DNA of 64,000 nucleotides, from IMG/VR virus record IMGVR_UViG_3300029365_000529, positions 14,196 through 78,195 of that record; one strand, given 5' to 3'. The translations under genes were made by a program, and so were the position numbers. Positions within the stretch are counted from its first letter, which is position 1, and each line of letters begins with the position of its first letter. This document shows positions 29,811 to 51,952 of the stretch, piece by piece. Source of the stretch: a virus. The notes beneath the pieces were generated by a model. It worked only from the letters and a program-made list of their open reading frames with translations, was not told the DNA's origin and made no database searches.

Positions 29811-29850
29811 GAAAGGAGTGAGCCTTGCGCCCACTCCTTTATTTATTTAT
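29811..29850. terminator. bidirectional terminator shared by the lipoprotein operon and the giant gene
   Basis: Stem GGAGTGAGC/GCCCACTCC (one mismatch) with loop CTTGC, A-run upstream and TTTATTTATTTAT downstream. Confidence 0.6.
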
Positions 29851-32800
29851 TCCAATCTATCCAGTTCATCCACCGCATCCATCATAATCCTGTCAATATT
29901 CTGGTTAGCGAAGTTGATGCTCTCGGTATCTGAAGATTTATCTCTGAGTTTCTTCCATCGCTTCATCTGCTTCTCTGCCAGCTCGATTACTCTCACCTTG
30001 GCAGCCTCCTTGGAGTTTTGGAAGTGATAATACTCCCCGATATTCGTGATTCTCTTGTCAATCGGAACGTTCTTCGATTTCAGGCGGTCCACGTTGGCCA
30101 TGGTCTTTTCCATTTCGTCCTTGTAGTTATACCACTTGCTCTTGGTTCTCTGCAAGCTACTCTGCTCACTAGGCGTATAAAGAAGAGAGCGAAGGAAAGG
30201 AATATCCTTGGTTTCCGTGTCGCTTCCATGCTTGATAACACCGATAGCTCGCTCTGTAAAGGTAGCAGCGCCACCACCTATGCCACCGATGTAATGATTC
30301 AGCATACTAGGGTTCGTTACCATATCCAGGAAACTGTTGCCCAGCATATCCTCATTACCCTTGGCTACATCGTTGGTCTGGGCATTCACCCATTTATTCA
30401 CAGCCAGATAACCGTCAGGCACACCCTTGTAGGCTCTTTGCCAAGCAGGGGAATTTTCATTCCAGTCACCACGTCTTTCAATCGGCGCACCCTTCCAGTC
30501 GGTGTTTAACTCCCATTCCACGAAAGGAGATAGGGCAGAAGGAGAGATAGCCTTGATCGTCTCATTCAATGGCTCCTTGCCAGCCGAAGAGTTACCGAGA
30601 TAGTCCATCACCGGCACAAGCTGCGACATACAGCCCACGGCATCCAAGGCAGGATTCTTCTGTCCGCTTACGTTTGGCGAGAAGGTCAATCCAGCCGCCA
30701 AGTCACCCAAACCATAGAAGGCTCTCAACTCAATGGCAAGCGGAATAGTAACAAACTGACCGCCACCCTTGTAGATGCAGAGATTGTTTCTTCTCACGTA
30801 GTCAGGCAACTCGCCGTATGGGTCCTTCACGCCCTTTCTATCCTTCTCATCCTCACTCGCAATCAGCACATTGTTTCCAAGTGCAGCCAGAGCACCTAGG
30901 GCAAAAGGAATGGCAAGCATATTGATAGAAGTACCCACAGGATGATTCTTCAAGTTCTTCACAAGAAGATTTGTACTTTGAATACCGGCATTAAAGAACA
31001 TAGAACAATGTCTCAGATAGCTAGCCGTAAATCCGTAAGCCCATCTTGCAGCCGCCTTGCCGCCAGTCATTTCTCCGTTCTTGAAACTCTTGATGGCATC
31101 ACCGCTTCCATGGCGGTTGAAGTTGGTAGATACCTCCTTTGCATCATAGACCGAACGGATGATAGAACGGTTACTGTCTCGGCTCGCACAATAGGTAGCG
31201 AATCGGGCGATATTCTCAGCCACCTCGTTGATGTTCGCCAGATTTCCGAAGAAGAAGTCACGAAGGGCAGCGCCGCCCTTGTCAATCTTGCTTCTTTCGC
31301 TCTTCACATCTTTCTTGTACTCCTTGGTCCAGTCCTGCATGTTCTTGATCTGAACCCAACCGGTTTCGCCGCCGTTCTCCATGAACTCCTTGAAATATCG
31401 TTGAACCTTGTCAGAAGTATCAAGTGTTCCGTTACGATACTTGGCAAACAAGCCCAAGCCAGTAGTTCCGCTCAAATCCTTGAAGCTGATATTCGATGCA
31501 CCCTTATACAAGCCCAACTGCGCATAGTACTTCGTCCAGAGCGCACCATATCTTGCACCCTCCTTAGAAGTAACGTTGCTCGATGCAAACTCCGCATCAC
31601 GCATGATGTTTCGCATCACGAACTCAGGGTTATAAGATGTACACAACTGCGCCATCATTCTTGATATAGAACTCAATGGTTTCATGATTCCCTTGGCGCC
31701 CGAGTTCTCCAGCAATCCATTCAGAGCTTGCGCCGCTCTAGGATTTCCGTTGATAATAAAGGTATGGGTCCTTCCGGCAATCTTCACATCTACGATATGC
31801 TGCGATTTATTCTCCGCTCTTTGGAACTTATAGCCGATTCTTCCTCTTCGATACACCTTTGTCGCCAACCCCTTTGATTCCAAATCCTTCATTTCCATAT
31901 TGAAGTCTGCTACTATCTGATTTATTTCATCAGCCGTAGCGTCCTCGGGAATGTCTGGGTAACGCTCCACGGTGGTATGAGTGATAGGGTCATCGGCGTA
32001 CCAAACCCTAGTCTCCGTCACAAGATTATTGTTCGAGTTGTTTCTTACGAATCTTGCAAATGCCTGACGGATAGCGTTCATACCGCCATTCTTGATAGCT
32101 CTGTTACCCATCGCACCAATCTGCGCCAGTACGTTTGTTTCACTCAGATACTTGTGTCCTCTCGCTCTCATAATCGTGCTTCCGATGTAGCTCTTCGGGT
32201 CGCCCTGCTCAGTAATGTAGCCATAAGTATCTTCTGCAGTAGCCTCATCATACTTTCTCAAAGGCACATACCAGTTGAACATATCAGATACATGACCGTA
32301 AAGCTCTCTACTGATAAGACCATTCTTATAGTCAGTATCAATAGAATACTGGGTGGCAGCCTTCACCTTATCCCAATAGTCCTTAACAGACCCCTTCTTG
32401 ATACTCTCCATCTTTGCTTCTGAATCCATCACGCTAGCGATAGCCTCAGCATCATCGTAAGGATCAGAAGACTTAGCCACTTCCTGTATAGCGTGAATAC
32501 CCGAATAGTCATGTTCGCCAGCATCAAACTTATTGTCACTATCCACGTAGGTACGGATGAAATCGTCCATGCGCTCATAATAAGTCTTCAGGTCGATGTC
32601 TCCACGCTCCAATTTCTCGTCAAGGGTAGCTTTCTCGTTGTTCCAATCGAACTCCACAGTATCAGCTAGCTTCTTTGTCTTCTCGTTCATGCGCATATAC
32701 TTCAAGGCATCACGCACATACAAGATACGGTTTCGCTCCAAGCCGTGCTTGGTAATCATGTAGAGATTGAAGTTTCTGATCTTCTCATCATCCTTCTTGC

Positions 32801-35800
32801 CATCGAAAGCATCCAGTACGCCGGCCATGGCCTTATCAAGAGGCTTCATCACGTTGCGCTCAAATATCTGAGCCGCATCACTCATCGCACCCTGCATGGT
32901 GTTCTGCAGTATATAAGGATTCTCAGAAGAAGCAATATCTTCAATCTTCTTGTCAGGCACAATCGCATTCATCAACTTCTTCAACGAAAGCATATTGTCC
33001 ATATAGCTCTCGGTGAACATATAGCCATGTTCATCAAGCGAGCGGTGGTATCTGTCAAGTGCCGTGCCGGCAGATGGGGTAGTGCGGAAGTGAATCTCAC
33101 CATCTGTAGCCTCATTCCACTCAGCCTTGGTAAGATTATCCATACTTCTAACCTTAGCGTCATTTCCGTAGAACATACCATCATGAGCCACGACAGCAGG
33201 CATACGCTCATGGTCGAGACGGTATTTCACCGCCTCGACTCTCATTTTCCAATAAGGATCATTTGGATTCTTCTGCAAGTTCTTGCTCAACCAGAGCAGA
33301 TACTTCACATCTTTAGTATTAGGAGCAATACGATAACCGATTTCGTGAAGGAAATCAGATACCTTATTTTTGATACCATTCCAGAAGCCCGGTTCACCCT
33401 TGCCATCTTCGGCGAGTCGGGCGATACCTTCCTCAATGGCATCATAGATATTCAGAGGATTGAACTTTCTCTCCTCATCCACCAGCTTCTTTAAAGCCGC
33501 ATTCTCAGGCTTATCCAAGTCATACCATACTTCACGAAGGAACTTATCGAATCGTTCATCACCAAACAACTCTCTCATTCCCTTGTGTCCAACTACCTCA
33601 TGCCAGATAGTCTTCTCGGCAGTATATCTGTCGTGGATATTAGGCATATAAAGATGCACCTCGCCAGTCTTTTCATCATACCAGCCGGTAATCTTTCTGC
33701 CATCCTCAATAGCAGCCTTAGCTGCCTTGTTGGTGATTTCATCAACTGATGAAACCATCTTCACCTTGCCACCAGTCTTCTGAGCCACATTTTCGATATG
33801 GCTCTCAACCGATGAAGCAGGGTAGTTGCTTTCTCCATTATCCGTGCGGAATTTAGTGCCTCCGTCCTTGCCCCATTCCTTGTAGGCATCCTTTGTCATT
33901 TTTACGTTGACGAACTTAGCCTGAGGGAACTCCTGTTCCAGTTCAGCCATCTGCTTCAAGAACTTCTCCTTTGTTTCAGGGTTCTGTCTGCCTTGCTCTA
34001 CGGTAGTGATAGGCACACCAAGTTTTACAAGCTCTCTCAACTGGCTAGGGGTAACTACGTTCCAAGGGATAGCCAATCCGGTTCCTCTCAGTTGGTCGGC
34101 GATTTTCTCAGCAACCTCCTCGTCAGGCAATATTCTTACTGCCTTTCTCCATCTAGAGAGCATCACGCTTCTCTGTCTGTCCTTTGGCAGAAGGCTGTTT
34201 ACTGTTCCAGAAGTCCAAGGCACCAAGCCCACAGAGTTCTTTGCGCCCTCGGCGTGATAGCCGCTAGTCTTCTCGCTCTCAGGAATCTCCCATTCAACAA
34301 CCTTGATGTTGCCTCTAGCGTAAGCACCAGAGAACTGGTCGTTCATCACCGAAGTGGAAGTGTGCATGTAAGGGTTATAAGCCGCTGGCACTGGTCCTTC
34401 ACCTGCCCCAGGGTTCTTGTCGGTCTTTACAAGTTGGAACTTACCGTTCTTCACAAGGTCAGGTCGCTCGTCTGCGCCCATCCAAGCACCAATCTCGGTA
34501 GCATCGGTACGCTTTCCGTCAATGATAGCAGCCATAGGGGAGTACAACTTTCCATCCACCTCCTGCATTCCGCTATACATTCTGAAAGTCTTCTCCTTGT
34601 TGAGGCGGTCCAGCTCGTCCTTATCTGTGACCTTATAGGAGAATCCGTCCTGTTCAATCTCATTCATGGAAATATCATCAATGGTTTCATTGAAATCATC
34701 CATGATGTCATTGATAGCCTTATCCATCTTATCCTTCTCAGAAACCTCAAAGAGTTTCTTCCAAGCATCCTTCAAACGTTGCAGGATAGAACGGTCGCCC
34801 TTTCTTGCAAACTCATGTGCTGCATTCACAACTTTATCCCAGATAGACAAGTCCATCGCCTTTCTCTGTCTAGAATCTGCCATCTGAGCAGTCAACTCGT
34901 AAGCATCAGTCAGACCGTAAGGCTCTTCTTTGAAACGTTCCTTATCGCCCTTTACTCTGTCATAGATTTCGAGGATAGTCTTTACGCCCTCTATCTGCTT
35001 AGGAGTCAGCATGCCCTCAGCCTTGCCTTTCTTAACGAGATTGATAGCACCCATTGTTGCCTCATGAATCATTTCATGCAGCATGATGGTAGGGGCAGCA
35101 TAGTCTGGAGCTTTGGTCTTCGTTATACCATCAATGTATAAATCAATGTTTCTGCGAGTGTCCGCTTCTCCCGCCCTCTTGTTTGGATCCTCTGGGCTTA
35201 CTTTGATTCTTACGCCGAGGCGCTTACTTATATTGAGTGCTTTTTCGAAGAGTTCAGCCTTTTCTTTATCTCTATTTGTTTCTTTAAAAATTCGTTCAAC
35301 GTCTCCAAGTGTGAACGTTCCTCCTGGCTGCAATCCCCAAGTCTCTCTGAGATTCTTTGCTCTAGCGTCTCTATAGGCAAGTTCTCTGTCAGCGACGGCG
35401 AGAATGGTCTTATAATATTGCAGTAGATAAGAGCCTTTATTTCCCTTACCGTCATTCTTACCACCAAGATGTCCTCCGGTATGCTGTCCTGATAACTTTT
35501 CAACTTTTCGTTCATAATCATTCTTGTAATATTCAATAACGCTTCTACCAAGATCAGAAAACTCATCCAGAGCAGATTCAAGATTATCAGCAAACAAAGA
35601 TTTATCTCTGTCTTCTGTATGCTCTTCGATGTCCTTAATGGTAGAATCAAACTTCTTTTCAATCTGCGAAGATACATTTTTATCTACATCTTCCGGAATG
35701 ATTCTACTATTCTTAACATCTTTTGTATCTGTTTTAGAATACTGCAAGCCTCGGTCCTCACGGAAGTGGGTGCGTTCATCCTCAGAAGTATTGCGCTCCT

Positions 35801-38800
35801 CCTGTACCTTTACGCCCATCTTAGACAGGCGGTCCAGTACAGGCTTCAACTGATCAGGCTTAAACTCAGCAAGCATATTGTTGCCTCTTGTTTCGAAGTT
35901 ATTGCCATTAACCAGTTTCAGCAAATTTTCATCCATGAAGTACTTGCCGCCCTTCGCCTTGCTCTTCGGCACACGAAGCTCGTAGAAGTTGCCACGATTG
36001 TTGTCTATGCGCTTCACCTTCACTTCACCATCTGATGAAGTAACCTCGTCAATACCACCATGCCATGATGAAAGCTCAAACTTATCTACCACGCTGTTGA
36101 TAGGCGCATCCGTAGTCAAGCCCTTAGGGTCGAATCTATCTGGCATCAAGATACCAGTCTTCACCTCGCCAGTATCTGTAGTATATTTCACCAGCTGACC
36201 GCCCAAGCCCTGATCCTTGCTGTCAACCAAAGCCTGCATCAGATTACCAGTTACAATATAGCCATTCTTGCGGCTCTCATTGCTAGTCAGTCTATCCCAG
36301 TTATCAAAGTTTTGGTTCAATACTCTGAGATGGCTGTCTCCCATACCGGCAGCCTGCTTAGTCATGTTGTCGATGGCACTGATAACATCAGCCTTGTTGT
36401 CACCTGCGCCCACCTTACCCGCGATAGGGAATGTAATCTTTCTTCTGCCATCCAAGGTAGCGAAGGAAACCGAAGAGGCGTTAGGCGAGTAGTTATCAGT
36501 AATCTTGATGTCAATAAGTCTACCATAACTGTTACCGAATCCGCTCAACTCGTTAGGATTGTTCATATCCGTAGGCAGAACGAAAGTCTGGTTTGTATCG
36601 AAGGTATCAAGCACACGCTCAAACATTTCAGCCTTGGCTTTCAGGTTCTTCACCACATCGTTCAGCTTATCTTTCTCCTGCTTGTAGATGTTGTCATACT
36701 GATAGCCAGCCATCTTCTCGATCTGCTCATCGCTCATGCCCGAATCCTTCTGACCCTTCTTGCCATCCTTGATATACTTCTCCTTAGCCTTGGTTGCAGC
36801 CTTCACGGCACGCTCCTCATACTTCTGAGTCTCGTCCGCAATCTTCTGGTCGAAGTACTCCTTCACGGCAGCCTTCTTATCGGTCTTGTATTCATCCCAA
36901 GTCTTGCCGCCAGTCAAACCATCCTGCGAAGCCTTCACCTCAGAAGCCTTCATTGGCTTCTTCAAGATGGCCATGTTCACCTTTTCTATATAGGTGTTGT
37001 CTGCAAAGGCGTTATCGCCGCCCGGCTCTGCACCCTGTTTCCAAACTTCCTTGTGGAGAGTCTTAGCCTTCAAAGGCAACTCAGTAATCTCAAGGTCATT
37101 CTCACCCATTTCGTTGAGTCGCTGAATCTCGTTGGCATAAAGCTCGCCAATCTCCTGCAACATCTTCTCCTGCTCAGAAACTCTCAGCAGAGCCATACGC
37201 CCAAGCAACTTGCTTGCATCGGCACCAGCTTCACCTTCACCAACACCGCCACCGCTAGCAACAAGAGTTTGGGGGTCGATTCTAGACAAATCATCGCCAT
37301 TACTCTTTTCCCATCCGAATGGATCAGCCATGCGTGCATAAAGGTCAAGATGCTCTGCCATATACTCACGAACTACCTTATCACCATATTTATTGGTAAT
37401 ATCGGCAACTTCCATTTCGTTGAACTTACTCTTCTGAGAAGAAGTAGTGTTGGCATCAAGTGACTTCAACTTAGCCTTAAACATCATCAGCAGTCGCTGC
37501 TCGGCAGGGATAAGGGAAACCACATATTCGTATGCACCTCTAGCCACCTGACCGGTTCGGTCGATTCGTCCACGCATCTGAACTTCATCGTTTACGTCAA
37601 GTTGCTGCTGCGCCACGATCATCACACGCTTCTTCTGGTCCTTATACTTGCTCGAAGCATGAAGGGAAATACCGGTTGCTGCACTCTTGTTGAGAATAAG
37701 CGCATCAATCTTACCATCGTTAAAGTCGCGCGCGAGTTTCTTCTTGTCTGTATCTGCACGCTTTACCTTGGTAACAGTTCCGTTGTCGTTATAAACAAAC
37801 TCGGTCTGTCTACCGGTCAGCTCGCCAACCTTATAGCCAGCCTTCTGCAGCTCGTTCTTGATTACATCAATAGGAGAGAGGGAAAGACCGGTACTTGTCT
37901 GCTCAATCTTCTTTTCCAGTTCGTGATAAGCATCAACTGCCTCATCGCCCAAATCCGAAAGCTTGATGTAACCGCTTTCGCTATTATCCTTTGCATCCTT
38001 CTGGGTATAGCGAAGTGTACCTTCAAGACCCTTCTTCAAAGATGTACCCAAGTCTGGTGCGTCCATTTCCTCGCCAAGCGCAAGGTTGCCAGTCTGCGAT
38101 TCGTTGGTATTGTTCAACGCAATCACAGGCTTCATGCCCTGCTTCAAATAGTCGATGGCACGTTCTGCAGCAGACTTTGCTTTTAGGGAAAGAAGAACCT
38201 GCTGAACGGCATTGAATGCCTTGCTGGCAAATGGCTGATTTTTGATACCCAGGGCAGCCGTTCCCTTCTTGATTCCCATGGTAGACTGAATGGCAGCCAA
38301 CTCGTCATTACGCTCATCCACGTAACTTGAAACATATTTCTTTTGGAAATTGATAATATCATTAAACAATCCGATGATGCTATCATACTGTTCTCGCTGC
38401 TCCTGCACTCGCTCTGGATCATCAATAGCCTTCCAGTCGATGGTTACGCCAGTCATATCTCGCTCACGGCGAATCATCTGACCGCATTGCGTCAAGGTCT
38501 GGCTCATAATCTCCTGCAAGGTTGCACCACCACGCTTCACCGCATCAATCAAATCGGATGATTTCATACCGCCCTCGTTCATGGCAGTACGCAAAGCGTA
38601 GATAGGCATGTTGTCTGGTCTCTTGGCAAAGGTAGCCGAGAAGAAGGTAACATTCTTTGCCTTCTGAATAATGTGTTGGAAATAGTTGCCCTGTCCGCTA
38701 TTGCCACCAGCCGTGTGGCTTTCGTCAAGGATAAGATAGGCGTTACCCATCAGTTTTTCAATAGCATCACGTCTTTTCTGTCCGCTCAGAGCAGCAGCAC

Positions 38801-41800
38801 CGAAAGATTTACCCTTCGCAAGCTTTCTCTCCTTGCGGTTGCCATCCTCGTCAAACTCATACACACCATTGCTTACTTGGCTGTAAGTAGTCAATACATA
38901 GTCATATTCGTCTGGCAGCTTTCCATTCTTTTCGATGTAATCAAGCACTCGCTTCACCTCGCTCTTCGATGGCAAAGCAAATACTACTTTTCCGTCTGAG
39001 TCGGTAATGGCAGCTTCCTTGGCGCTACCGAATACAAATGGTCTTAGGTCTGGGCTGCCAATATCCACCAAGTCACGGTAAACATCGCTCAGCAATCCTG
39101 CTGTCTTGGTGAAATATACAGGAACCTGACCCTGCTTCTTGGCGTATCTGATAAGTGAAGCAGCCTGTCTTCCCTTACCGATACCTGTCATATCTCCAAT
39201 GATGAAGGCATTGCCCTTCTTTGCCTGCTGCAAGGCAAGGGCTACAGAGTCAACCTGCTCTGCAGCAAGATGAGAATACAAATCATCCTTATCATTATAG
39301 CCCAGCTCGTCAACAAGGAACTGGTCGGCATCGCCCAACTTTTCAAGATTCTTGTTTACTGCCTCCTGCTGATCGGCAGGCATCACGGCTTTCAGAGTGA
39401 ATGGATTTCCACTCTTAGGTGTATAGGTAACTTTCTCGGTGCTTAATCCACGTACGGATTTGTCCACCCGCTGTAATTGTCCCCGTGGTCCGCTTCCGCT
39501 CCCGGCGTTGGAAGGCTCATCAGTACTTGGCTGAGCGTCATTCCGTCCAGCTCCTCCTGATCCATTTCCTCGCTGCTCATTGGTTCCAGTGGTTGGTTCT
39601 TTGCTTGGAGAAGGCTCTGTCCCTGTTCCGTCTGCTCTACTATCTCCATTAGGAAGTCCTCCATCTTGTCTTGGCTCGGTTCCTCGTTGATTTTCCAAGT
39701 CATCATGGGTTCCTGATACGGAAGTGGAGTCAAATAGGTCAGACTCTCGCTCACCATCTGGTTTGCTTCCTCCTCGTTCTCCTGCTCGTACTCTCTCTTT
39801 AGGAGTACCAGCAGCGCCTTGTTTATCAAGTTCTGGTTGAGCACTTCTTGTTTCTCCTCCGATGGAAGAATCCATCCGTTCACCTCGTAGTATATCATCT
39901 TCAATTCGTTTATAAAGTTCGTCATAATCTTTCACGGTCTCTGCTCTAGCCTTATCCTTTACTGGTGGAAAGGCATTTTCATTCAAGCGTCTTCCGTTTA
40001 TTAATATAATACGTGTAGGGTAGCTGGTTCCCTGCTTTGCATAGAGACTGCCATCCACATTAATCACGTCCTCCACATTATAGTGGCTATAGAGATAACC
40101 AAGGAAAGCCTTATCTTTCGGATTCAGACTTCCGTTCTTGGCGTATTCCGTCTTGCCGCCGACGATAATGGCTGCACGGCCATCGTCTTTCATGCTCTCC
40201 AAGGCATTGATAGCCATCTGTCCTTCCAAAGAAGAAATCTTATAGCCGTCATACTCCTTAGGGGTAGCACTACCGAATGGTGGGTTTGTTACCACCACGT
40301 CAACGTCCTTGTCTGCAAAAGGCTGAGTTCCGTCCTGACTGGTCACGTTCTTGAAGCCCTGTCTTCTCAGGTTCGCCAATCGCTGGGCATCAATATCGTT
40401 CACATGCACCTTATCCATTGGCAAGCCGATGGTAAGCATACCGTTGCCGGCACTAGGCTCCAGAGTACTCTCAATCACCTTGCCGTTACCCTTCACATAC
40501 ATATCCGCAAGGAAAGCGTAAGGGGCAGGGGTAGAGTACTGCTGCTTCATCACTCGCTCAGAATCACGCTGGTTGAGGCTAGGCTGATTCTCATAGAGTG
40601 TCTTGATGCGTTCAAACTTCACGGCATCGTTGGTTGATTCAGAAGAAGCGATACCTCTTGCTCGCTTAACAATAGCAGTCTCAGCAAGCTCCTGCAAGTC
40701 CGTGTCCTTAATATCCTTCAAGCCAACTCTTTCAGCGATTTGTCTCAGTTCAACTATTCCGTTAAACTTATGCTTGAAACCCAACTTTATGTTCACGGTA
40801 TCAATAAACTTCTTCTCAGCCATCTTTCTCTCCTCGGCAGTCTTTGAGTCACCCACCAGATTCTCCTGATGCTTAGGCGAAGTTTTCTCGTAGAAGTCAG
40901 CCCAATCCTTCAAACTCATGCGCTGCTCACCATCGCGATAGCGGATATTCATCATCTGCTCATAGATAGCATCCACGTCTTCCTTCTTAAAGAGCTTGGC
41001 AGCAGGAGCAAACTCCTTGCGCATTTCCTTCACCACGTCTTCAAGATTGTGCATACCTCTCTTGATTCTCAGATAAGCATTTTCGGCCATGGCGCTCACC
41101 AGCTTAGGCAATACTTCCAACTGTCTAGAGTTAAGACCAATAAACGAAGCGGATATTTCGTCCTTACCGGCATTCTTGAGCATATCCCAAAGGTCATTAA
41201 CCTTCTTGTTGGAAGCTGCTACTGCTGCATCGTCAGCCTTCTGCTGAGGCTTCTTCTCTGTCTCAGCCTTAGTTTTCTTCTCCTTACCAAAAGCTTCTGC
41301 TGCATTCTTGATTCCTTCCATAGGGTCAGCAGATGGTTCCGTTTTAGGAGTCTCAACCTTTGGTTCAGTCTTCTGTCCTCTGGTCTTGGCAAAGATACTT
41401 TCATAGATAGCACGATGCAAATCATCTGTCACCTCACCGTTCAGATAATCAAGAGCCATATCCTTGGATAAATCATCCACGTCAGCCTTCATGATCTCCT
41501 CCTCAGTCAGAGGATGCTCCTTCTTGAATTCCTTGGCAGCCGCCGCAATCGGGTCAAAAGTAGGGTCTGGCTTCTCTTCCTTAGGAAGGAGTGGGAGAGG
41601 TTTTTCTTTTACCTTACCGTCAACATATTCGACAACCTCATTCAGGTCGCCAAACTTCTTGCCATCATACTCATAGTATGAGCCGGTATATTCTCCCTTA
41701 TCGTTTGGCTCATCAACCTTGATAACCTCCTTGTCGCCATCAATAAGAATCTTCTGCCTTGTGATAGGACCGTTCTCAGATGGAGTTTCGGTTTCCTCGT

Positions 41801-44800
41801 CAGTAACCTTAATACGACTTTCAAGTTCTTTGTTTACTAAGTCGTCTGGTTCTTCTACTCTTGGTCGTTCTGGTTCTGTTCCTGCTTCTGCTGGTTCATT
41901 TCCTCCTGATGCTTCTTGTTGAGGTTCTTCATTGCCTGAAACATCATTGCCTCCTTCAATTTCTGAATGTCCTGTTCCATAATCTTGCCATTTTTTAAAG
42001 TTCAAATACTCATTAATTAACTCTTCCTTGGTAGGAGCTGCCTCAAACATATTGCCCTCGCCAGTATTTCTAGCCTTAGCGATGCGGTTGTATTCGTCAA
42101 GCAAATCTCTGAAATCAGAAACCTTGCCCTCCAAGGCTAAAGCCATCATCTGAGAGATAGAAGAGTAACGCTTAGCCGCATCCTCACCGAACATGTCTGG
42201 TGTTCTCAGCAGCGTATCAACCTTATTGCCACCCTGTCTTGCCTCATAGAGCAACTGTATAGCCTGATCAATCTCATCACGAAGAGAGAACTCACCCAGC
42301 TTCATGTTGTCCATTACCGAGCGGATAGCGTTGATAGCCTTATTCTTCACCGTAGAGTCGATGCCCAACATTCTGATAGTCTCTGGCTTGAAGATTGAAC
42401 CCAACAGAAGGTTCTTCACATACTCCCTGCCTTGTGCAGAAAGCCGTTCAGGACTATCCATCATCTGTGCCACCTCGTTCTGTCCGATGATGCCTTTATC
42501 TACTAACGTCTTCACCAAGTCATTTATTGCCTTGGAATTGTTAAAGAAAGCATCAAGAGAGCCATTTCCCTCAATCTCTGCAACAATCGCACCTACTTCG
42601 TCAGAAGTCAAGGTCTTAGCCTTGGCAACCGCCTGTTCGGTATTGCTCTGTGTCTTCTTCTCGTTTCTGTTGAATTTGGAGAAGGTAGCCGTATCGTATG
42701 GCAGTCTCTCATCCGTCACCAATACAAGACGTGGATGCTCGATTCCACTCTGCTCAATCTGCTCTCTGGTAAAGCCGAAGTTCTCGGCATTCTCCAAAAG
42801 GTCGTTGATGTATTCTGCGTCTGTGCCTTCCTTTGCAGCCTTCTGTCCTGCCATGGTTCTACCGTTACCATCATAAACGATACCCTCGTCAGATACCACT
42901 GGCACCTGCTCGATAGCCATACCGTTATACTTCCTAGCAATCTGGTCCGTATTCTGCTGAGCCGCCTTGTCGTGCTCATAGTCACGGTCATTCACGGTTC
43001 TGCCCTCAGCATCGGTAGGGAATCCCTCAGATTTCTTATAGCCATTGTTCACATCGTGAGAAGGAGTAAGACTTTCTGCCGGCACAATCTCATAGTGTCC
43101 CTTAATCTTTGTCTCTCCGTCAGGCAGCATTCTTGTACGCTTGTTACCCACCAGTCTTGGTGCATTCACAAACTTCTGTGCAGCCACGCTACCAGCTTCA
43201 TGTGCGCCCTCAGTCTGTTCTGTATTACCCACAGTCTCCGCAACCTTCTTGGCAGTCATAGCCTTCTTGATATTCTGAGCGTGGTCCAGCTGCTTCTTGG
43301 CAGCTTCAATAGTCTGATTCTTCAAAGTCTCCTGCTCCATGATGTCGTTAGGTTCGGCGGTATAGTCCACCTTCATCTTCTCGGCATCCTTCAAAGCCTT
43401 CTCTGCTTTCTGAATCTGTCCGTCCACTACCTTCTCGGCATTATCCCCGAAATCCTCAGTAAGAATCTCCGCACTCTGCTCAGGAGTCATTTTCTCATAG
43501 TCAGGCGTAGGTCTTCCCTTGCTGTCCGTAGCCATAGGAACATCTGAACCATCGGCAAACTTACGGGTAGGCTGAGGCTGCTCTTGTGGTACAAATTTCT
43601 CGGTTTTGGTATTATTTTCGCCCGATGCGGTATTATTTTCGCCCGATGCGGTATTATTTTCCTCATTTGTGGTATTATCTTGTGGTGCTTCCTGCTCCTT
43701 TGGCTGAGGCTTGGCAGCATCCTGCATAGCTTGCTCCTGTGCTGCCTGATTGTATGGCTCAGAGTTCTTCATCTGTAATCTCTGACGATATTCTGCAGCA
43801 AACTGGTCGATAGGCTGATTCTGAAACAGAGTAACCTCATCTGCCTTCACATAAACCATTTCCCTGGTATTAGGGTCGAAGCAGACAAGCATATCGCCGC
43901 TACCTTCCTTGGCTCTACCTGTAGTCTGGTCAAAGGCAACATCACCCGAACCAACAAGAAGTGTTCTTCCGTTGCTGTCTTGCACGTACAAAGCTTGCTC
44001 GCCATTCATCGGCTGGCCATTCAATGTTCCGTGATAGCTCCAATCAGAAATAAAGCTCTTCACATTTTCCTCTATGACATCAGCAGTAGCTTCCTGCATA
44101 CCCTGCACTCTAGCGTTCGCATTAATATATTGGGCAAGTGGGGTCAACTCTTCTTGGGTCAATCCATTCTGAATGAGTGCATCGTAAATCTGTGCCGGTG
44201 TCAAGCCCTGCTGGTGCAATTTCTCAAATGTTTGCTTGAACACATCGTTGCTATCCATTGCTTCATCAACCGCCTGTTCTGCATTCCGAAGGTTGCGCAA
44301 CTCATCAACTACCACGCCGCTATCCGGGTTGTCCGTTCCCAGACTATGCTCCTCGGCAACCGTCTTGCCTTGGCTGGCAGACTGGTCTGCGTGTGGTCTC
44401 CAGCTAGGAAAAAGCTCATCTTCGAGTGCTCTCTTCACATGATAGAAGATTCTGTTCTCCTCATCGGTACGCTTCATTGGGTCCTTGCGCATGATTTTGT
44501 CAATATCAATAACAATGCTTCCTTCTTTACCAAGAATTTCTTTGATAGAAGCCATGAAGTTATTAGTATAGCCTCTGCTTTCTGATCTGAGGTAGCCAAG
44601 CAAACCGTTTTTGTCCGCATACTTCTCCCAGTCAAGATAGAGCGCACTCTTCTGGTTGCGCAACTCATTAATCAGTCGGGCATTATTCGGGTCTGTAATA
44701 TCCTTATTCTCGTCATATCCGTTTTCTTTAAGAAATCTAAACGCTAGATTAGTGACAGTTCCATCATCATCTAAGAACTGCATATCCTTCATTCTTGCAT

Positions 44801-47150
44801 AGCCCATCAGCGACATCATATCGTCATTATCACGATAAAGCTTCTGCTTGTAAAGAATAGCTCTGCGCTCATCGGCATTCTTATAAGAGGTACGTGTAAG
44901 CAGTGTTCCGTTCTTGGTGTATTCCAGAATCTGCTTGTTTTTCACGTCGTTCACGCTTCGGTAGCTTTTGCCTCTTGTCGTGTTAAACAGTCCCATGGCC
45001 GCATTCACCTTCTCTTTGGTGCTCTGAGAAACGTCTGGGTCGTTCATAAAATCCGTGTAAGCAGTCTTATACTTCGGGTCTCTTGGGGCTGTCTTCGATG
45101 CACGGTCCATCTTTGTAAAGGCATCCATCAGATTCTTGCCCGATGCAGAAGAAATCAGCTCGTTCTTCTCATCAGGAGTCAGACGAATATCCACGGCGAT
45201 AGGGGAACCGTTGTCATTCTTGCCAATCACGAAATTACCACCGCTGTTATGGGTAAGATGATGCAGGATATTGCCCATCTTCACGAAGTTGCTAGGTTCG
45301 CCAGCCTTGAAAGCACCCACCATCACCACGTCTTCCAGCCAAGTGCCGAAGGAAATATCCTTGTCGCCAGTCACGTTGTCGGCAACCATCATGGTTCCAG
45401 CCTCAACACCGAGACCTGCGGCAGTAGCACCAAACTTCTGTGCGCCATGAAGCAATCGCTCTCCAGTGCTCTTTTCCATGCCGGTGATTCCGAACTTGGA
45501 AACCCAAGGAGACATCACCGCACCAGATACACCGAACATAGCACCAGTTACAGCACCGTGTTCTGCACCTTTCAGACCAGCCTCACCGATAGCCTGCAAA
45601 GAAGTATCATCGCCAGTAGAAGCCTGATTCAAAGCAGCACTCGCACCCGAATATCCTGCAAGATTCAGCGAACTTGTAGCCGTTCTAGTGCCCAATCCCG
45701 ACATGATCTTCTGTGCCGTTGTCATATTGGCAACCTTGAAAGCCATCTGCTGTGCTGTAAGTCTCTGTGCTGCCTTCATCACGCCAGCCTTCACCAGTCC
45801 GTTTGTCAGAACTCGGGTTCCTGCATTCACGGCAGCACTCGCACCTGCACCGATTACGGCAAGCGGACCAGAATCTGCAGCCATGTTTACGGCAGTAGAT
45901 GCGAATCTCGTACCGATGCCCGAGCGATAGGTTTCATCCTTGTGACCGGCCACCTTCTGAATCTCTGCATCACCGTCTGCGATAGCGATACCTTCCTGCA
46001 ATCTCTGTCTGGTATCTCTAGACATCACAGATGGAGCCACCACCATACCGATAATAGAGTTGCTGAGGTTCTTGGCAATGTAATCAAGCGCACCATGAGG
46101 CATGATTTCCTCCTGATTTCGCATCGTCAGAGCCTTCTGAGCATAGTTCATAATCTCTGGAGTAACGTATTTGTCCACGTATTCCTCCATACTCATGTTC
46201 AGCTTCTCTGCGCTCTCAGCAATATGGCGCTGCATACCCTTCTGCGAATAAATCTCATTGATTTTGCTGCTGAGATTGTTCATCAGAACGTTCTGACGGT
46301 TCACCTGTTCCTGCGTCTGAGCATCACGGAAAGCCTGTTCCTTTACCGACTGAGGCGCATAGATGCCGCCCATCTTGTCAAGGTTCTGCTGATACTGCTG
46401 ACGTGTTAATTCCTGCGCCTCATTTATGGAAGAATCAACCAGACTGAGAAGATCATTACCCAAAATACCTTCGGTCTGTCCGTCATTTCTTACGAACTTG
46501 TTGCCATCAACCTCATACTGGGCAAGATTCCTTGCATCGTCCTCTCTCTGCTGCTTACCTCTAGCCCTGCGAGCTTCAGGAGTAGAAAGCTGCTGCATCG
46601 TCTCGTTGAAGTTCTTGGCAGTAGGGGTTATTCTGCTTCTGCTGATAGGGGTTGCTCTCTGCTGTTCCTGACGTGCAGACTGCTCTTGTGCTCTTTGCAT
46701 GCGCGCGCGCATGTTGCTAGCCTGAGCCTGCTGCATCGGGTTCATCTGGTCGTTGCGCATGTGCATCAACTGCCAGTTCTTCATATAGTCTGTACCAGAA
46801 GCAGTAGCCGTACTAGGCTGCTGAGGTCTCCGAGGCTGCTGCCTCTGCTGCTTATACTGAGCTGCCACCTTCTGTGCCCTCTGCGAAGTAGTCATTGGCT
46901 TCTGCTGCGCTACCGGCTTCTGCTGAGGCTTCGGATTTACAGCATGGAGTCCAAGCCGCTGCGCAAACTCCTCATAGGAATTACTGGAAACAGCACCATC
47001 AGCATGAAGCGCATCATAGAGCTGCTTTCTGTTATGATAGCCCTGCTTGCCAGGCGCATACACGAACTTTCTGAAATGTTCTCTAGTTCCCGATACTGCG
47101 CCATCTGCTTTCAAGGCGTTATAAAGTTGGTCAAATTTATCTCCAGCCAT
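29847..47150 (-). CDS. giant polyvalent virion protein (5,767 aa): ParB-like + N6A methyltransferase + SNF2-family helicase + two HExxH zincin modules + hydrophobic segments
   Basis: Uninterrupted 17.3-kb ORF. Motifs confirmed by reverse-translating the + strand: DGNGR (ParB-like, about 42870), LEPSAGNG...VVTNPPFGSA (MTase motifs I and IV, NPPF at 40275-40286), GIGKGRQ (Walker A, about 39170), LILDESH (38715-38726), FFSATF (motif III), QMRGRIDRTGQ (motif VI, about 37570), IMLHEMIHEA (35062-35079), TIWHEVVGHKG (33584-33601). Confidence 0.85.
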   Translation of the reverse strand: MAGDKFDQLYNALKADGAVSGTREHFRKFVYAPGKQGYHNRKQLYDALHADGAVSSNSYEEFAQRLGLHAVNPKPQQKPVAQQKPMTTSQRAQKVAAQYKQQRQQPRRPQQPSTATASGTDYMKNWQLMHMRNDQMNPMQQAQASNMRARMQRAQEQSARQEQQRATPISRSRITPTAKNFNETMQQLSTPEARRARGKQQREDDARNLAQYEVDGNKFVRNDGQTEGILGNDLLSLVDSSINEAQELTRQQYQQNLDKMGGIYAPQSVKEQAFRDAQTQEQVNRQNVLMNNLSSKINEIYSQKGMQRHIAESAEKLNMSMEEYVDKYVTPEIMNYAQKALTMRNQEEIMPHGALDYIAKNLSNSIIGMVVAPSVMSRDTRQRLQEGIAIADGDAEIQKVAGHKDETYRSGIGTRFASTAVNMAADSGPLAVIGAGASAAVNAGTRVLTNGLVKAGVMKAAQRLTAQQMAFKVANMTTAQKIMSGLGTRTATSSLNLAGYSGASAALNQASTGDDTSLQAIGEAGLKGAEHGAVTGAMFGVSGAVMSPWVSKFGITGMEKSTGERLLHGAQKFGATAAGLGVEAGTMMVADNVTGDKDISFGTWLEDVVMVGAFKAGEPSNFVKMGNILHHLTHNSGGNFVIGKNDNGSPIAVDIRLTPDEKNELISSASGKNLMDAFTKMDRASKTAPRDPKYKTAYTDFMNDPDVSQSTKEKVNAAMGLFNTTRGKSYRSVNDVKNKQILEYTKNGTLLTRTSYKNADERRAILYKQKLYRDNDDMMSLMGYARMKDMQFLDDDGTVTNLAFRFLKENGYDENKDITDPNNARLINELRNQKSALYLDWEKYADKNGLLGYLRSESRGYTNNFMASIKEILGKEGSIVIDIDKIMRKDPMKRTDEENRIFYHVKRALEDELFPSWRPHADQSASQGKTVAEEHSLGTDNPDSGVVVDELRNLRNAEQAVDEAMDSNDVFKQTFEKLHQQGLTPAQIYDALIQNGLTQEELTPLAQYINANARVQGMQEATADVIEENVKSFISDWSYHGTLNGQPMNGEQALYVQDSNGRTLLVGSGDVAFDQTTGRAKEGSGDMLVCFDPNTREMVYVKADEVTLFQNQPIDQFAAEYRQRLQMKNSEPYNQAAQEQAMQDAAKPQPKEQEAPQDNTTNEENNTASGENNTASGENNTKTEKFVPQEQPQPTRKFADGSDVPMATDSKGRPTPDYEKMTPEQSAEILTEDFGDNAEKVVDGQIQKAEKALKDAEKMKVDYTAEPNDIMEQETLKNQTIEAAKKQLDHAQNIKKAMTAKKVAETVGNTEQTEGAHEAGSVAAQKFVNAPRLVGNKRTRMLPDGETKIKGHYEIVPAESLTPSHDVNNGYKKSEGFPTDAEGRTVNDRDYEHDKAAQQNTDQIARKYNGMAIEQVPVVSDEGIVYDGNGRTMAGQKAAKEGTDAEYINDLLENAENFGFTREQIEQSGIEHPRLVLVTDERLPYDTATFSKFNRNEKKTQSNTEQAVAKAKTLTSDEVGAIVAEIEGNGSLDAFFNNSKAINDLVKTLVDKGIIGQNEVAQMMDSPERLSAQGREYVKNLLLGSIFKPETIRMLGIDSTVKNKAINAIRSVMDNMKLGEFSLRDEIDQAIQLLYEARQGGNKVDTLLRTPDMFGEDAAKRYSSISQMMALALEGKVSDFRDLLDEYNRIAKARNTGEGNMFEAAPTKEELINEYLNFKKWQDYGTGHSEIEGGNDVSGNEEPQQEASGGNEPAEAGTEPERPRVEEPDDLVNKELESRIKVTDEETETPSENGPITRQKILIDGDKEVIKVDEPNDKGEYTGSYYEYDGKKFGDLNEVVEYVDGKVKEKPLPLLPKEEKPDPTFDPIAAAAKEFKKEHPLTEEEIMKADVDDLSKDMALDYLNGEVTDDLHRAIYESIFAKTRGQKTEPKVETPKTEPSADPMEGIKNAAEAFGKEKKTKAETEKKPQQKADDAAVAASNKKVNDLWDMLKNAGKDEISASFIGLNSRQLEVLPKLVSAMAENAYLRIKRGMHNLEDVVKEMRKEFAPAAKLFKKEDVDAIYEQMMNIRYRDGEQRMSLKDWADFYEKTSPKHQENLVGDSKTAEERKMAEKKFIDTVNIKLGFKHKFNGIVELRQIAERVGLKDIKDTDLQELAETAIVKRARGIASSESTNDAVKFERIKTLYENQPSLNQRDSERVMKQQYSTPAPYAFLADMYVKGNGKVIESTLEPSAGNGMLTIGLPMDKVHVNDIDAQRLANLRRQGFKNVTSQDGTQPFADKDVDVVVTNPPFGSATPKEYDGYKISSLEGQMAINALESMKDDGRAAIIVGGKTEYAKNGSLNPKDKAFLGYLYSHYNVEDVINVDGSLYAKQGTSYPTRIILINGRRLNENAFPPVKDKARAETVKDYDELYKRIEDDILRGERMDSSIGGETRSAQPELDKQGAAGTPKERVRAGERGGSKPDGERESDLFDSTSVSGTHDDLENQRGTEPRQDGGLPNGDSRADGTGTEPSPSKEPTTGTNEQRGNGSGGAGRNDAQPSTDEPSNAGSGSGPRGQLQRVDKSVRGLSTEKVTYTPKSGNPFTLKAVMPADQQEAVNKNLEKLGDADQFLVDELGYNDKDDLYSHLAAEQVDSVALALQQAKKGNAFIIGDMTGIGKGRQAASLIRYAKKQGQVPVYFTKTAGLLSDVYRDLVDIGSPDLRPFVFGSAKEAAITDSDGKVVFALPSKSEVKRVLDYIEKNGKLPDEYDYVLTTYSQVSNGVYEFDEDGNRKERKLAKGKSFGAAALSGQKRRDAIEKLMGNAYLILDESHTAGGNSGQGNYFQHIIQKAKNVTFFSATFAKRPDNMPIYALRTAMNEGGMKSSDLIDAVKRGGATLQEIMSQTLTQCGQMIRRERDMTGVTIDWKAIDDPERVQEQREQYDSIIGLFNDIINFQKKYVSSYVDERNDELAAIQSTMGIKKGTAALGIKNQPFASKAFNAVQQVLLSLKAKSAAERAIDYLKQGMKPVIALNNTNESQTGNLALGEEMDAPDLGTSLKKGLEGTLRYTQKDAKDNSESGYIKLSDLGDEAVDAYHELEKKIEQTSTGLSLSPIDVIKNELQKAGYKVGELTGRQTEFVYNDNGTVTKVKRADTDKKKLARDFNDGKIDALILNKSAATGISLHASSKYKDQKKRVMIVAQQQLDVNDEVQMRGRIDRTGQVARGAYEYVVSLIPAEQRLLMMFKAKLKSLDANTTSSQKSKFNEMEVADITNKYGDKVVREYMAEHLDLYARMADPFGWEKSNGDDLSRIDPQTLVASGGGVGEGEAGADASKLLGRMALLRVSEQEKMLQEIGELYANEIQRLNEMGENDLEITELPLKAKTLHKEVWKQGAEPGGDNAFADNTYIEKVNMAILKKPMKASEVKASQDGLTGGKTWDEYKTDKKAAVKEYFDQKIADETQKYEERAVKAATKAKEKYIKDGKKGQKDSGMSDEQIEKMAGYQYDNIYKQEKDKLNDVVKNLKAKAEMFERVLDTFDTNQTFVLPTDMNNPNELSGFGNSYGRLIDIKITDNYSPNASSVSFATLDGRRKITFPIAGKVGAGDNKADVISAIDNMTKQAAGMGDSHLRVLNQNFDNWDRLTSNESRKNGYIVTGNLMQALVDSKDQGLGGQLVKYTTDTGEVKTGILMPDRFDPKGLTTDAPINSVVDKFELSSWHGGIDEVTSSDGEVKVKRIDNNRGNFYELRVPKSKAKGGKYFMDENLLKLVNGNNFETRGNNMLAEFKPDQLKPVLDRLSKMGVKVQEERNTSEDERTHFREDRGLQYSKTDTKDVKNSRIIPEDVDKNVSSQIEKKFDSTIKDIEEHTEDRDKSLFADNLESALDEFSDLGRSVIEYYKNDYERKVEKLSGQHTGGHLGGKNDGKGNKGSYLLQYYKTILAVADRELAYRDARAKNLRETWGLQPGGTFTLGDVERIFKETNRDKEKAELFEKALNISKRLGVRIKVSPEDPNKRAGEADTRRNIDLYIDGITKTKAPDYAAPTIMLHEMIHEATMGAINLVKKGKAEGMLTPKQIEGVKTILEIYDRVKGDKERFKEEPYGLTDAYELTAQMADSRQRKAMDLSIWDKVVNAAHEFARKGDRSILQRLKDAWKKLFEVSEKDKMDKAINDIMDDFNETIDDISMNEIEQDGFSYKVTDKDELDRLNKEKTFRMYSGMQEVDGKLYSPMAAIIDGKRTDATEIGAWMGADERPDLVKNGKFQLVKTDKNPGAGEGPVPAAYNPYMHTSTSVMNDQFSGAYARGNIKVVEWEIPESEKTSGYHAEGAKNSVGLVPWTSGTVNSLLPKDRQRSVMLSRWRKAVRILPDEEVAEKIADQLRGTGLAIPWNVVTPSQLRELVKLGVPITTVEQGRQNPETKEKFLKQMAELEQEFPQAKFVNVKMTKDAYKEWGKDGGTKFRTDNGESNYPASSVESHIENVAQKTGGKVKMVSSVDEITNKAAKAAIEDGRKITGWYDEKTGEVHLYMPNIHDRYTAEKTIWHEVVGHKGMRELFGDERFDKFLREVWYDLDKPENAALKKLVDEERKFNPLNIYDAIEEGIARLAEDGKGEPGFWNGIKNKVSDFLHEIGYRIAPNTKDVKYLLWLSKNLQKNPNDPYWKMRVEAVKYRLDHERMPAVVAHDGMFYGNDAKVRSMDNLTKAEWNEATDGEIHFRTTPSAGTALDRYHRSLDEHGYMFTESYMDNMLSLKKLMNAIVPDKKIEDIASSENPYILQNTMQGAMSDAAQIFERNVMKPLDKAMAGVLDAFDGKKDDEKIRNFNLYMITKHGLERNRILYVRDALKYMRMNEKTKKLADTVEFDWNNEKATLDEKLERGDIDLKTYYERMDDFIRTYVDSDNKFDAGEHDYSGIHAIQEVAKSSDPYDDAEAIASVMDSEAKMESIKKGSVKDYWDKVKAATQYSIDTDYKNGLISRELYGHVSDMFNWYVPLRKYDEATAEDTYGYITEQGDPKSYIGSTIMRARGHKYLSETNVLAQIGAMGNRAIKNGGMNAIRQAFARFVRNNSNNNLVTETRVWYADDPITHTTVERYPDIPEDATADEINQIVADFNMEMKDLESKGLATKVYRRGRIGYKFQRAENKSQHIVDVKIAGRTHTFIINGNPRAAQALNGLLENSGAKGIMKPLSSISRMMAQLCTSYNPEFVMRNIMRDAEFASSNVTSKEGARYGALWTKYYAQLGLYKGASNISFKDLSGTTGLGLFAKYRNGTLDTSDKVQRYFKEFMENGGETGWVQIKNMQDWTKEYKKDVKSERSKIDKGGAALRDFFFGNLANINEVAENIARFATYCASRDSNRSIIRSVYDAKEVSTNFNRHGSGDAIKSFKNGEMTGGKAAARWAYGFTASYLRHCSMFFNAGIQSTNLLVKNLKNHPVGTSINMLAIPFALGALAALGNNVLIASEDEKDRKGVKDPYGELPDYVRRNNLCIYKGGGQFVTIPLAIELRAFYGLGDLAAGLTFSPNVSGQKNPALDAVGCMSQLVPVMDYLGNSSAGKEPLNETIKAISPSALSPFVEWELNTDWKGAPIERRGDWNENSPAWQRAYKGVPDGYLAVNKWVNAQTNDVAKGNEDMLGNSFLDMVTNPSMLNHYIGGIGGGAATFTERAIGVIKHGSDTETKDIPFLRSLLYTPSEQSSLQRTKSKWYNYKDEMEKTMANVDRLKSKNVPIDKRITNIGEYYHFQNSKEAAKVRVIELAEKQMKRWKKLRDKSSDTESINFANQNIDRIMMDAVDELDRLE
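43600..43680 (-). repeat. 21-bp tandem repeat (3-4 copies) inside the giant gene
   Basis: + strand GGTATTATTTTCGCCCGATGC twice, then two degenerate copies; encodes NNTASGE-NNTASGE-NNTKTE. Confidence 0.7.
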
Positions 47151-49629: not shown

Positions 49630-49632
49630 AAT

Positions 49633-49917
49633 CTATCCAATTAAAATAATGATTAATAAACCAGCAAATGCGCCTAACACATCTGCTACAATATCCTTGT
49701 TGTCAAACAAGCCGTATGTGTTATAGTCGTATGCCTCCTTCAATATGCCGGCAATAATTGCTATCATGCAAGCTGATACAGCCGAAGCCGTAATACCCAG
49801 ACCGAGCAGGTTCATATTCAAAAGAGCAACAACCATCGTGATCAGGCAGCAAGTCTCAAAGTGCAATACTTTGTCCTCGCCACCAATTCGCTTTATAAAT
49901 CTCTGAAATCTATTCAT
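49633..49917 (-). CDS. small integral membrane protein (94 aa)
   Basis: Three hydrophobic helices and a KEAYDYNTYGLFDNKDIVADVLGAF motif. Confidence 0.45.
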   Translation of the reverse strand: MNRFQRFIKRIGGEDKVLHFETCCLITMVVALLNMNLLGLGITASAVSACMIAIIAGILKEAYDYNTYGLFDNKDIVADVLGAFAGLLIIILIG

Positions 49918-49934
49918 ACTATTTTGTTTTAATA

Positions 49935-50159: not shown

Positions 50160-50381
50160 AATCTGTAATATTTAATATTGTTAACACTTCCCGAAAATTC
50201 AGGGGTGGGGAAAATCGGAAAACCGAAATCCAGAAAAAGGGGGTGGGGGGAGGCAGAATTTCTTTATTTGTATTATTCTACTATAATTTGCAACGGTGGT
50301 CGAAGGGGGTGGGGGTCTTGGGGTTGCCTGTTGTGCCTCGTCCACCTTGCCTGTCGCTCATCCACTCCACCTTTTAGCTGC

Positions 50382-51149: not shown

Positions 51150-51175
51150 AATTGCAATTATTTGATGTTTCGAGG

Positions 51176-51935: not shown

Positions 51936-51952
51936 CTGTGGGGCTGACGCCC

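Follow-up and report, generated by a model that had tools for sequence, protein, structure and literature searches.

I analyzed a stretch of 64,000 nucleotides of viral DNA, positions 14,196 to 78,195 of the IMG/VR virus record IMGVR_UViG_3300029365_000529 (hereafter the window), and found that a single open reading frame (ORF) of 5,767 codons on its minus strand (29847-47150) very probably encodes a phage-type polyvalent protein. In this one polypeptide, a ddrB-like ParB domain, a DNA methyltransferase (MTase), and a superfamily 2 (SF2) ATPase of the Strawberry-notch (Sno) type are followed by a C-terminal part containing the LPD38 domain. Taken as a whole, the giant protein is likely to be an ejection protein located inside the virion, the phage being a podovirus-like one of the gut with a portal of the P22 type. 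The concept of polyvalent proteins was described by Iyer, Burroughs, Anand, de Souza, and Aravind (2017, J Bacteriol; PMC5512222). In that study, ddrB-ParB and LPD38 are listed as phage-only polyvalent domains, the MTase-helicase dyad has P1 DarB as its archetype with Strawberry-notch variants being rarer, the zincin-like MPTase is the commonest polyvalent domain, and transfer together with the DNA is the predicted role. The present protein shares with the phage-type members the combination of ddrB-ParB, an N6-adenine (N6A) MTase, a Sno-type ATPase, and LPD38 on one giant polypeptide, and it is likewise encoded by a phage with a portal-terminase system. It differs from them in lying at the upper end of the size range and in having two modules (X1 and X2) and an N-terminal part of ~1,160 amino acid residues (aa) that fall outside all Pfam LPD families. 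The original prediction, which had described a multi-enzyme polyvalent protein of a Bacteroidota phage, is thus borne out by profiles for the ddrB-ParB, N6A MTase, and SF2 ATPase domains.

Is this ORF a single real gene, as had been claimed? According to the ORF list and the translation, it starts with an ATG codon at 47150 and has a single terminal stop codon, and the predicted protein has a mass of 643.5 kDa and a pI of 5.7. The chance of 5,767 stop-free codons is ~1e-149 with the local base composition. The source contig is listed in ENA as a metagenome scaffold of 75.6 kb. In an independent contig of a Segatella copri metagenome-assembled genome (MAG), L010, the frame is open across all 13.2 kb retrieved, and the product is 96.8% identical to residues 1358-5767. 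In a second MAG (L011), the frame is open for 4,381 aa. N-terminal fragments with 86-95% identity cover residues 1-2122, and fragments with at least 85% identity cover the whole protein except residues 2123-2311, a gap bridged by L010. Full-length relatives are 5,334-6,017 aa in length. Since the frames of L010 and L011 are open and full-length relatives exist, the giant ORF is not an assembly artefact, and the concern that it might be interrupted was not borne out. Moreover, the start codon is conserved, because relatives align from residue 1.

One may still suppose that the single ORF is an artefact of assembly or sequencing, or a functionally split gene from which several separate proteins are really made. 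A contig showing three consecutive ORFs with breaks near module boundaries (L009) speaks for this, as did another relative (L003) that at first appeared to split the gene in two. The break of L003 turned out to be a run of N, namely a scaffold gap, and the split was therefore rejected. Against this supposition, the frame is uninterrupted over about 4,400 aa in the independent assemblies, ORFs of 5,391 and 5,553 aa are present in complete genomes of cultured phages, and many of the best family representatives exceed 5,000 aa (see below). I regard it as highly improbable; post-translational cutting into pieces is possible, but it belongs to the ejection-protein explanation favored here. As for L009 itself (Logan contig of SRR3067129), its three ORFs result from two frameshifts, both near module boundaries. 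The first (L009:1200-1290, at residue ~1297) is a 1-nt difference that changes KKAMTAKK into KKL-stop with an overlapping ATG (ATGA), and the second (L009:9900-10080, at residues ~4173-4190) lies inside X2. These breaks could be due to gene fission or fusion, decay, or assembly error.

The enzyme domains were located with a Pfam scan run on 1,000-aa tiles with curated cut-offs; all module coordinates given below are on the minus strand of the window. The ddrB-like ParB domain (PF18763) lies at residues 1347-1473 (42732-43112) with an E-value of 1.2e-10 and 42 bits against a cut-off of 27.6 bits. The DGNGR motif at residue 1427, correctly read as ParB-like in the original prediction, lies in this domain. 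The next domain is a gamma-class N6A DNA methyltransferase resembling HsdM/EcoKI at residues ~2200-2420 (39891-40553), whose motif I LEPSAGNG is located ~57 aa before the motif IV NPPF (residue 2289). A profile (A3) was built from residues 2130-2450 with 11 homologues; the residues E, P, G, and G and the NPPFG sequence are invariant in the alignment. Compared with PDB, this profile matched the EcoR124II M protein (HsdM) with an E-value of 3.7e-10 over 220 positions, and then the M proteins of StySJI and EcoKI. DNA methyltransferase families of PHROG also match this region at about 2e-4. Judging from these profile matches, the NPPF segment is an N6A DNA methyltransferase of the HsdM-like type, in agreement with the earlier assignment.

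The SF2 ATPase occupies residues 2627-3356 (37083-39272). It was found that Pfam AAA_34 (residues 2627-2923; E 3.1e-15, 56.3 bits against a cut-off of 27 bits) and Helicase_C_4 (residues 3106-3356; E 1.5e-25, 91 bits against 30.5 bits), which are the two halves of Strawberry-notch-type SF2 ATPases, match in a row. The original reading as an SNF2/DExH helicase was right about the SF2 ATPase and all four motifs, GIGKG (residue 2656), DESH (residue 2809), SAT (residue 2838), and QMRGRIDR (residue 3191). A canonical SNF2 protein was rejected in favor of the Strawberry-notch type, since the Pfam SNF2-rel_dom model gave only an E-value of 0.011 and 15.3 bits against a cut-off of 24.9 bits. Thus, both the NPPF and the DESH segments fall into MTase and helicase families, the latter being re-assigned to the Strawberry-notch branch. 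The MTase precedes the ATPase, with a disordered linker of ~170 aa between them, and an extension at residues 3357-3785 (35796-37082) travels with the MTase-Sno unit. This unit (residues 2129-3785) is also found as stand-alone bacterial proteins, such as P0163 of Adhaeribacter, in which the extension is conserved. Single-sequence searches of the giant protein against PDB sequences gave no match, and NCBIfam on all tiles gave nothing meaningful.

Three modules follow the MTase-Sno unit. X1 (residues 3786-4140; 34731-35795) is helical and has a HEMIH sequence at residue 4025, which is conserved as HEM[IL]H in homologues. Its AlphaFold model has a predicted local distance difference test (pLDDT) score of about 80-95. 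Weak SprT-like matches were obtained in Pfam (3 of 23 members, E >= 0.006) and no match in PDB, and X1 is possibly a zincin. X2 (residues 4141-4440; 33831-34730) is an alpha/beta domain, modeled with pLDDT values of 85-97, that has been shuffled widely among polyvalent proteins; copies with 50-86% identity are present in dozens of differently built ones. It has the motifs AAYNPYxHTS, NDQF, and VExExPxSExTSGY, and has no match in Pfam or PDB. A Foldseek search of the X1/X2 model against PDB gave nothing at E <= 1e-3, nor did the profiles A1 and A2 match PDB sequences. The third module (residues 4441-4696; 33063-33830) has HEVVGH at residue 4516, conserved as HE[VAI]V[AG]H, and may possibly be a mini-zincin. 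Two HExxH zincin motifs had been claimed: HEMIH is the only strict one in the protein, the second is of the HExxxH form, and the peptidase assignment is weighed below. The Pfam models MPTase-PolyVal and MuF_C did not match the giant protein.

Metagenome contigs of relatives often end inside X2, producing truncated database proteins that seem to start at residue 4191. The idea that a separate gene starts there in many relatives was rejected, since these are contig-end truncations (e.g., P0003). Since metagenome assemblies tend to break inside X2, many database entries are fragments of such giants.

The rest of the protein (residues 4697-5767; 29850-33062) is a conserved, mostly helical C-terminal part. 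It contains LPD38 (PF18857) at residues 5443-5652 (30195-30824; E 5.8e-24, 85.6 bits against a cut-off of 27 bits) and one strong transmembrane (TM)-like helix at residues 5412-5430 (30861-30917), and phrog_14770 matches it at 5e-115. Its structure model has a pLDDT of 75.7 and a predicted template modelling score (pTM) of 0.67, and no relative was found in PDB. Homologues of the giant protein were searched in three pieces. A HMMER scan with residues 4697-5767 over 1.84 billion cluster representatives (clusters at 50% identity) found 3,961 clusters at E <= 1e-3, 962 of them at E <= 1e-30. In nearly all of the best 150 representatives, the match is at the extreme C-terminus. Of the best 149, 55 reach 5,000 aa or more and 15 reach 5,767 aa or more, the longest having 6,927 aa. 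Thus, the size of the giant ORF is typical of the upper range of the family rather than exceptional. Modules were then counted in 110 representatives of at least 3,000 aa at single-sequence sensitivity, so that the numbers are lower bounds: the HExxxH domain in 99, X2 in 35, ParB in 32, Sno in 21, MTase in 19, and X1 in 12.

The N-terminal part begins with a Q-rich low-complexity leader (residues 1-288; 46287-47150; defined by composition), detected in 23 of these 110 representatives. It is followed by a conserved region at residues 289-1163 (43662-46286), common to the relatives P0027 and P0201 and detected in 29 of the 110, always at residues ~270-1190. This region has no match in Pfam, PHROG, or NCBIfam. 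The Gly/Ala-rich hydrophobic segments mentioned in the original prediction correspond to a stretch inside this region (residues ~400-620; 45291-45953) with 33% G+A. The internal tandem repeat mentioned there is also real; it is tiny, 21 nt x 2.6 copies with 100% matches (43608-43661; NNTASGE in translation; found with TRF), and sits in the linker between the N-terminal region and the enzymes. An internal duplication of the protein was looked for by self-BLAST and rejected, as none was found.

How are these parts combined in relatives? P0027 (2,435 aa) aligns to residues 289-1163 and 4372-5764 and lacks everything between. In P0201, the N-terminal part is joined to a PBECR2 nuclease. The same C-terminal part occurs with other enzymes or domains, namely a kinase (P0055), LPD3 (P0026), PBECR2 plus inorganic pyrophosphatase (InPase) plus ART (P0064), and C5-methylases. 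In two close relatives (P0207 and P0212; 81% and 65% identity in the C-terminal part), the MTase-Sno pair is replaced by a different helicase-MTase pair in the opposite order, and one of the two adds a kinase. Relatives thus retain ~1,160 aa at the N-terminus and ~1,300 aa at the C-terminus, while the enzymes between these ends are swapped. This pattern suggests that the conserved ends may serve as a chassis with exchangeable cargo. That an MTase and a translocase are kept as a pair through non-orthologous replacement argues that selection for the activity maintains them.

A bolder extension of this idea is that the N- and C-terminal parts form an uncharacterized chassis that a large group of podovirus-like phages uses to deliver proteins, and that recombination at junction modules held in common, e.g., X2, has exchanged the cargo (up to ~3-4 thousand residues) between phages. 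I offer this only tentatively and lean slightly towards doubting it. If true, the family would amount to a new kind of ejectosome and to a programmable system, provided by nature, for bringing large proteins of any sort into Bacteroidota and Proteobacteria; X2 and the N-terminal chassis would then be new domain families.

Is the giant protein packaged? The original prediction supposed that it is packaged and injected, and homologues with the same C-terminal module are indeed in virions, which supports packaging and ejection. The C-terminal module is common to Vibrio phages, 933W-type Stx phages, and the Bcep22-like phages of Ralstonia and Burkholderia. In the Burkholderia phage JC1, gp69 (4,515 aa) was the second-highest scoring protein in purified virions by mass spectrometry, with 51 unique peptides, and virion proteins of 4,500-4,600 aa of the Bcep22 type were already discussed there (PMC9144972). 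In the Stx phage phi24B, gp47 (2,811 aa; LPD5, LPD1, LPD38, and MuF-C) is abundant in virions but invisible in cryo-electron microscopy, and an ejection role has been proposed for it (bioRxiv 10.64898/2026.04.10.717836). From these homologues, it seems probable that the giant protein is packaged into the virion and ejected. The giant protein would be made late and encapsidated in a few copies. At infection it would leave the virion before or together with the DNA, passing through the portal and tail in the manner of beads on a string. By analogy, the conserved ends (the Gly/Ala-rich N-terminal part and the C-terminal part with the TM-like helix) may serve packaging, passage, and envelope anchoring, together with the small proteins encoded upstream.

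What would the cargo do? It may act in cis on the entering phage DNA: the ATPase would track along the DNA, and the MTase would modify or shield adenine target sites, as proposed for P1 DarB, thereby blunting type I restriction. The ParB-like domain may provide binding of DNA and/or nucleoside triphosphates. The His-Glu modules, in turn, may release working units by cleaving the polyprotein, or may have targets in the host. By this analogy, restriction evasion might be the main benefit of the cargo, a supposition for which I see about equal chances of being right or wrong. In a prevalent lineage of Bacteroidota phages of the human gut, such giants account for roughly one quarter of the genome, which implies strong selection for delivering DNA-protecting enzymes at entry.

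Alternatively, the protein may be mainly a structural component of an ejectosome, in which the ends and the helical modules build a trans-envelope conduit while the enzymes are accessory and contribute little to restriction evasion. The C-terminal module is the universal part, with its 3,961 clusters, and some relatives are almost enzyme-free, such as P0027, which has only the N- and C-terminal parts with LPD38. The authors of the phi24B study propose a conduit role for gp47. The TM-like helix and the Gly/Ala-rich segment would fit this role. So would the upstream genes for small membrane and coiled-coil proteins, an arrangement also seen in the ejection operons of N4 and T7. A conduit role is also compatible with an ejected DNA-protecting protein. 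On the other side, the MTase and helicase pair is kept in close relatives, even by non-orthologous replacement, which indicates that the cargo is selected for. I judge the chance of a mainly structural role to be a little short of even.

A further alternative is that the protein is not packaged at all, being an intracellular factory for replication or anti-defence made after infection, in which the MTase-helicase provides self-protection along with DNA-partition-like functions. The stand-alone MTase-Sno proteins in bacterial chromosomes and mobile elements (P0163, Adhaeribacter), which lack a virion context, are in line with this, and so is the distance of about 12 kb between the giant gene and the portal block. 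On the other hand, LPD38 and ddrB-ParB mark polyvalent proteins of the phage type and are tied to packaging contexts, virions of two phages that bear a homologue contain the protein, and a homologue adjoins the portal gene in the Bacteroides phages BS-TP4 and BKO1-TP3. Moreover, an enzyme made after entry would be too late to protect the incoming DNA. This alternative is therefore improbable.

Several observations weigh against the explanation as a packaged, DNA-protecting ejection protein, or against parts of it. The virion association of the giant protein is inferred from relatives whose identity to it is only 22-25% and confined to part of the C-terminal region. The role of the conserved ends in packaging and ejection is argued purely by analogy, and no structural relative of these ends was found. 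The Pfam MTS, N6_Mtase, and UPF0020 matches converge on the NPPF region, each below the gathering threshold. A tblastn search with residues 1301-3400 against 50,697 phage records hit 7 records, none of them P1 or P7, so that there is no BLAST-level similarity to P1 DarB. Neither the HEMIH nor the HEVVGH module was placed in a peptidase family by profile searches, and no peptidoglycan hydrolase domain was found in the giant protein. Finally, some 12 kb separate the giant gene from the portal block, unlike the arrangement in BS-TP4.

By protein comparison, three temperate phages of Bacteroides deposited in 2025 are the closest relatives in culture. They encode BS-TP4 gp3 (5,391 aa, 'hypothetical protein'), BKO1-TP3 gp55 (5,553 aa, 'DarB-like antirestriction'), and BF1-TP2 gp68 (3,633 aa), and the paper on these phages does not discuss the giant proteins (PMC12694917). 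BS-TP4 gp3 has the same order of ParB, MTase, Sno helicase, and LPD38, with 39.5% identity over residues 2129-3785 and 28.6% over the C-terminal part. It differs in having an extra InPase, and no similarity was detected to the N-terminal chassis or to X1/X2. BKO1-TP3 gp55 differs in lacking an MTase-Sno match. In both phages, the homologue gene directly precedes the portal gene, which is another difference from the window. Given the same order in BS-TP4 gp3, the 55 of the 149 best representatives with at least 5,000 aa, and the existing DarB-like annotation of BKO1-TP3 gp55, the earlier claim of an unexplored size and domain order does not hold. Rather, the giant protein joins a known polyvalent/DarB-like family in which giants of its size are common.

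The proteins of better-studied phages resemble the giant protein in part. In JC1, too, the gene of gp69 is giant (about 22% of the genome); it closes the virion morphogenesis module, and the gene before it encodes a virion protein of ~500 aa. The Burkholderia phage DC1, which like JC1 is Bcep22-like, matches residues ~4936-5349 with about 23% identity over ~410 aa. The DC1 protein is annotated with a lytic transglycosylase domain, whereas none was found in the giant protein, and the Bcep22-like phages have hosts among Proteobacteria. The LPD38-containing C-terminal module is shared with phi24B gp47 and 933W L0134 (about 25% identity over residues ~5126-5583 in 933W-type phages). These proteins of about 2,800 aa are half the size of the giant protein, lack the ParB, MTase, and helicase cargo, and have MuF-C.

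P1 DarB (2,255 aa) likewise combines an N6A methyltransferase with an SF2 helicase-like ATPase in a single fusion. Located inside the head, it shields incoming DNA in cis against type I restriction and is the functional model for the cargo. It differs in lacking the LPD38 chassis and in being incorporated through the DarA/Hdf/DdrA/DdrB pathway, while the ATPase of the giant protein is of the Strawberry-notch type. The virion RNA polymerase gp50 of coliphage N4 (3,500 aa) combines a membrane/ejection domain at the N-terminus and a large domain at the C-terminus with an enzyme in the center, and is encoded with gp51 and gp52 in a three-gene ejection operon including small membrane-active proteins, for which a beads-on-a-string model was proposed (PMC13434306). 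It is a mechanistic analogue of the chassis-plus-cargo layout. However, its cargo is an RNA polymerase rather than a DNA-modifying enzyme, and no sequence or fold similarity was detected. The same is true of the T7-, N4-, and P22-type ejection proteins (gp14-16, gp50-52, and gp7/20/16), none of which showed sequence or fold similarity to the giant protein.

If the ends do function in packaging and ejection, the enzymes between them could be handles for studies of restriction evasion in Prevotella/Segatella and Bacteroides, and the layout suggests a way of engineering phages to bring proteins of choice into gut bacteria. In the annotation of gut viromes, the LPD38-containing C-terminus can serve to recognize large 'hypothetical' ORFs of this kind.

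As had been predicted, the giant gene closes a minus-strand operon. The run starts near 51.3 kb, and a terminator-like hairpin with a T-run (29812-29840, minus strand; 12-bp stem with 6 GC pairs) lies 7 nt after the stop codon of the giant gene. The upstream genes span 47168-51311, all on the minus strand. Directly upstream is the syntenic partner of the giant gene, encoding a low-complexity protein of 469 aa (47168-48577). This protein is 49% identical to a 481-aa protein encoded upstream of P0027 and 25% identical (E 5e-5) to BF1-TP2 gp69, and it occupies, by position alone, the place of the virion-associated JC1 gp68. It is preceded by the genes of a 352-aa coiled-coil protein (48571-49629; identified from its sequence), with a weak match to a 135-aa protein of the relative L004 (E 9e-4), and of a small 94-aa membrane protein (49633-49917; phrog_26616, E 8e-8), 42% identical to the syntenic 85-aa protein of L004. 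The first gene of the cassette (50382-51311) encodes a membrane, Q/A-rich protein called as 309 aa, whose true start is probably internal. This protein is 60% identical to a 239-aa protein of L004, 44% to BS-TP4 gp1, and 32% to BF1-TP2 gp70. Synteny of these four genes extends to those upstream of the homologue in a relative from the pig gut and, in part, to Bacteroides phages. Between this operon and the plus-strand genes from 53185, a region of ~1.6 kb (51500-53100) has no ORF of at least 100 aa and a lower GC content (~0.39). This is probably a divergent regulatory region.

The window also encodes a P22-like portal protein (15122-17155; P22_portal, E 1.8e-22) and a terminase (10663-12780; PHROG). 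Among 50,697 GenBank phage records, relatives of the portal protein with 31-35% identity were found only in the three cultured Bacteroides phages. Close relatives are labeled as Prevotella/Segatella copri in NCBI assemblies and MAGs, which makes Segatella/Prevotella copri the most likely host, although binning does not prove it. A nucleotide search of the giant gene against GenBank phages and PLSDB plasmids gave no match. Neither an Rfam family nor a tRNA (by ARAGORN) was found in the whole window.

Directly downstream of the terminase gene, an 885-aa protein is encoded on the minus strand (7981-10638; phrog_32516, E 1.4e-72), and a similar-sized ORF of 884 aa adjoins the probable terminase gene of L004. 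A tail-fibre-like protein of 1,021 aa (21284-24349, plus strand) has tail-fibre PHROG matches in its N-terminal part and a CotH kinase-like domain (Pfam, E 2.8e-11) in its C-terminal part, which is unusual for a phage fibre. A 155-aa ORF (3615-4082, plus strand) has weak methyltransferase matches (Methyltransf_11, E 5.6e-5; N6_N4_Mtase, E 6e-4, partial) and may encode another DNA methyltransferase, separate from that of the giant protein, or part of one. A 262-aa protein of the SPFH/Band 7 family (Pfam, E 4e-22) is encoded at 61623-62411 (minus strand). A DUF7841 protein is encoded at 5903-6364 (minus strand; Pfam, E 2.5e-8), and at least two DUF7841 genes are present on the source contig and in related loci.

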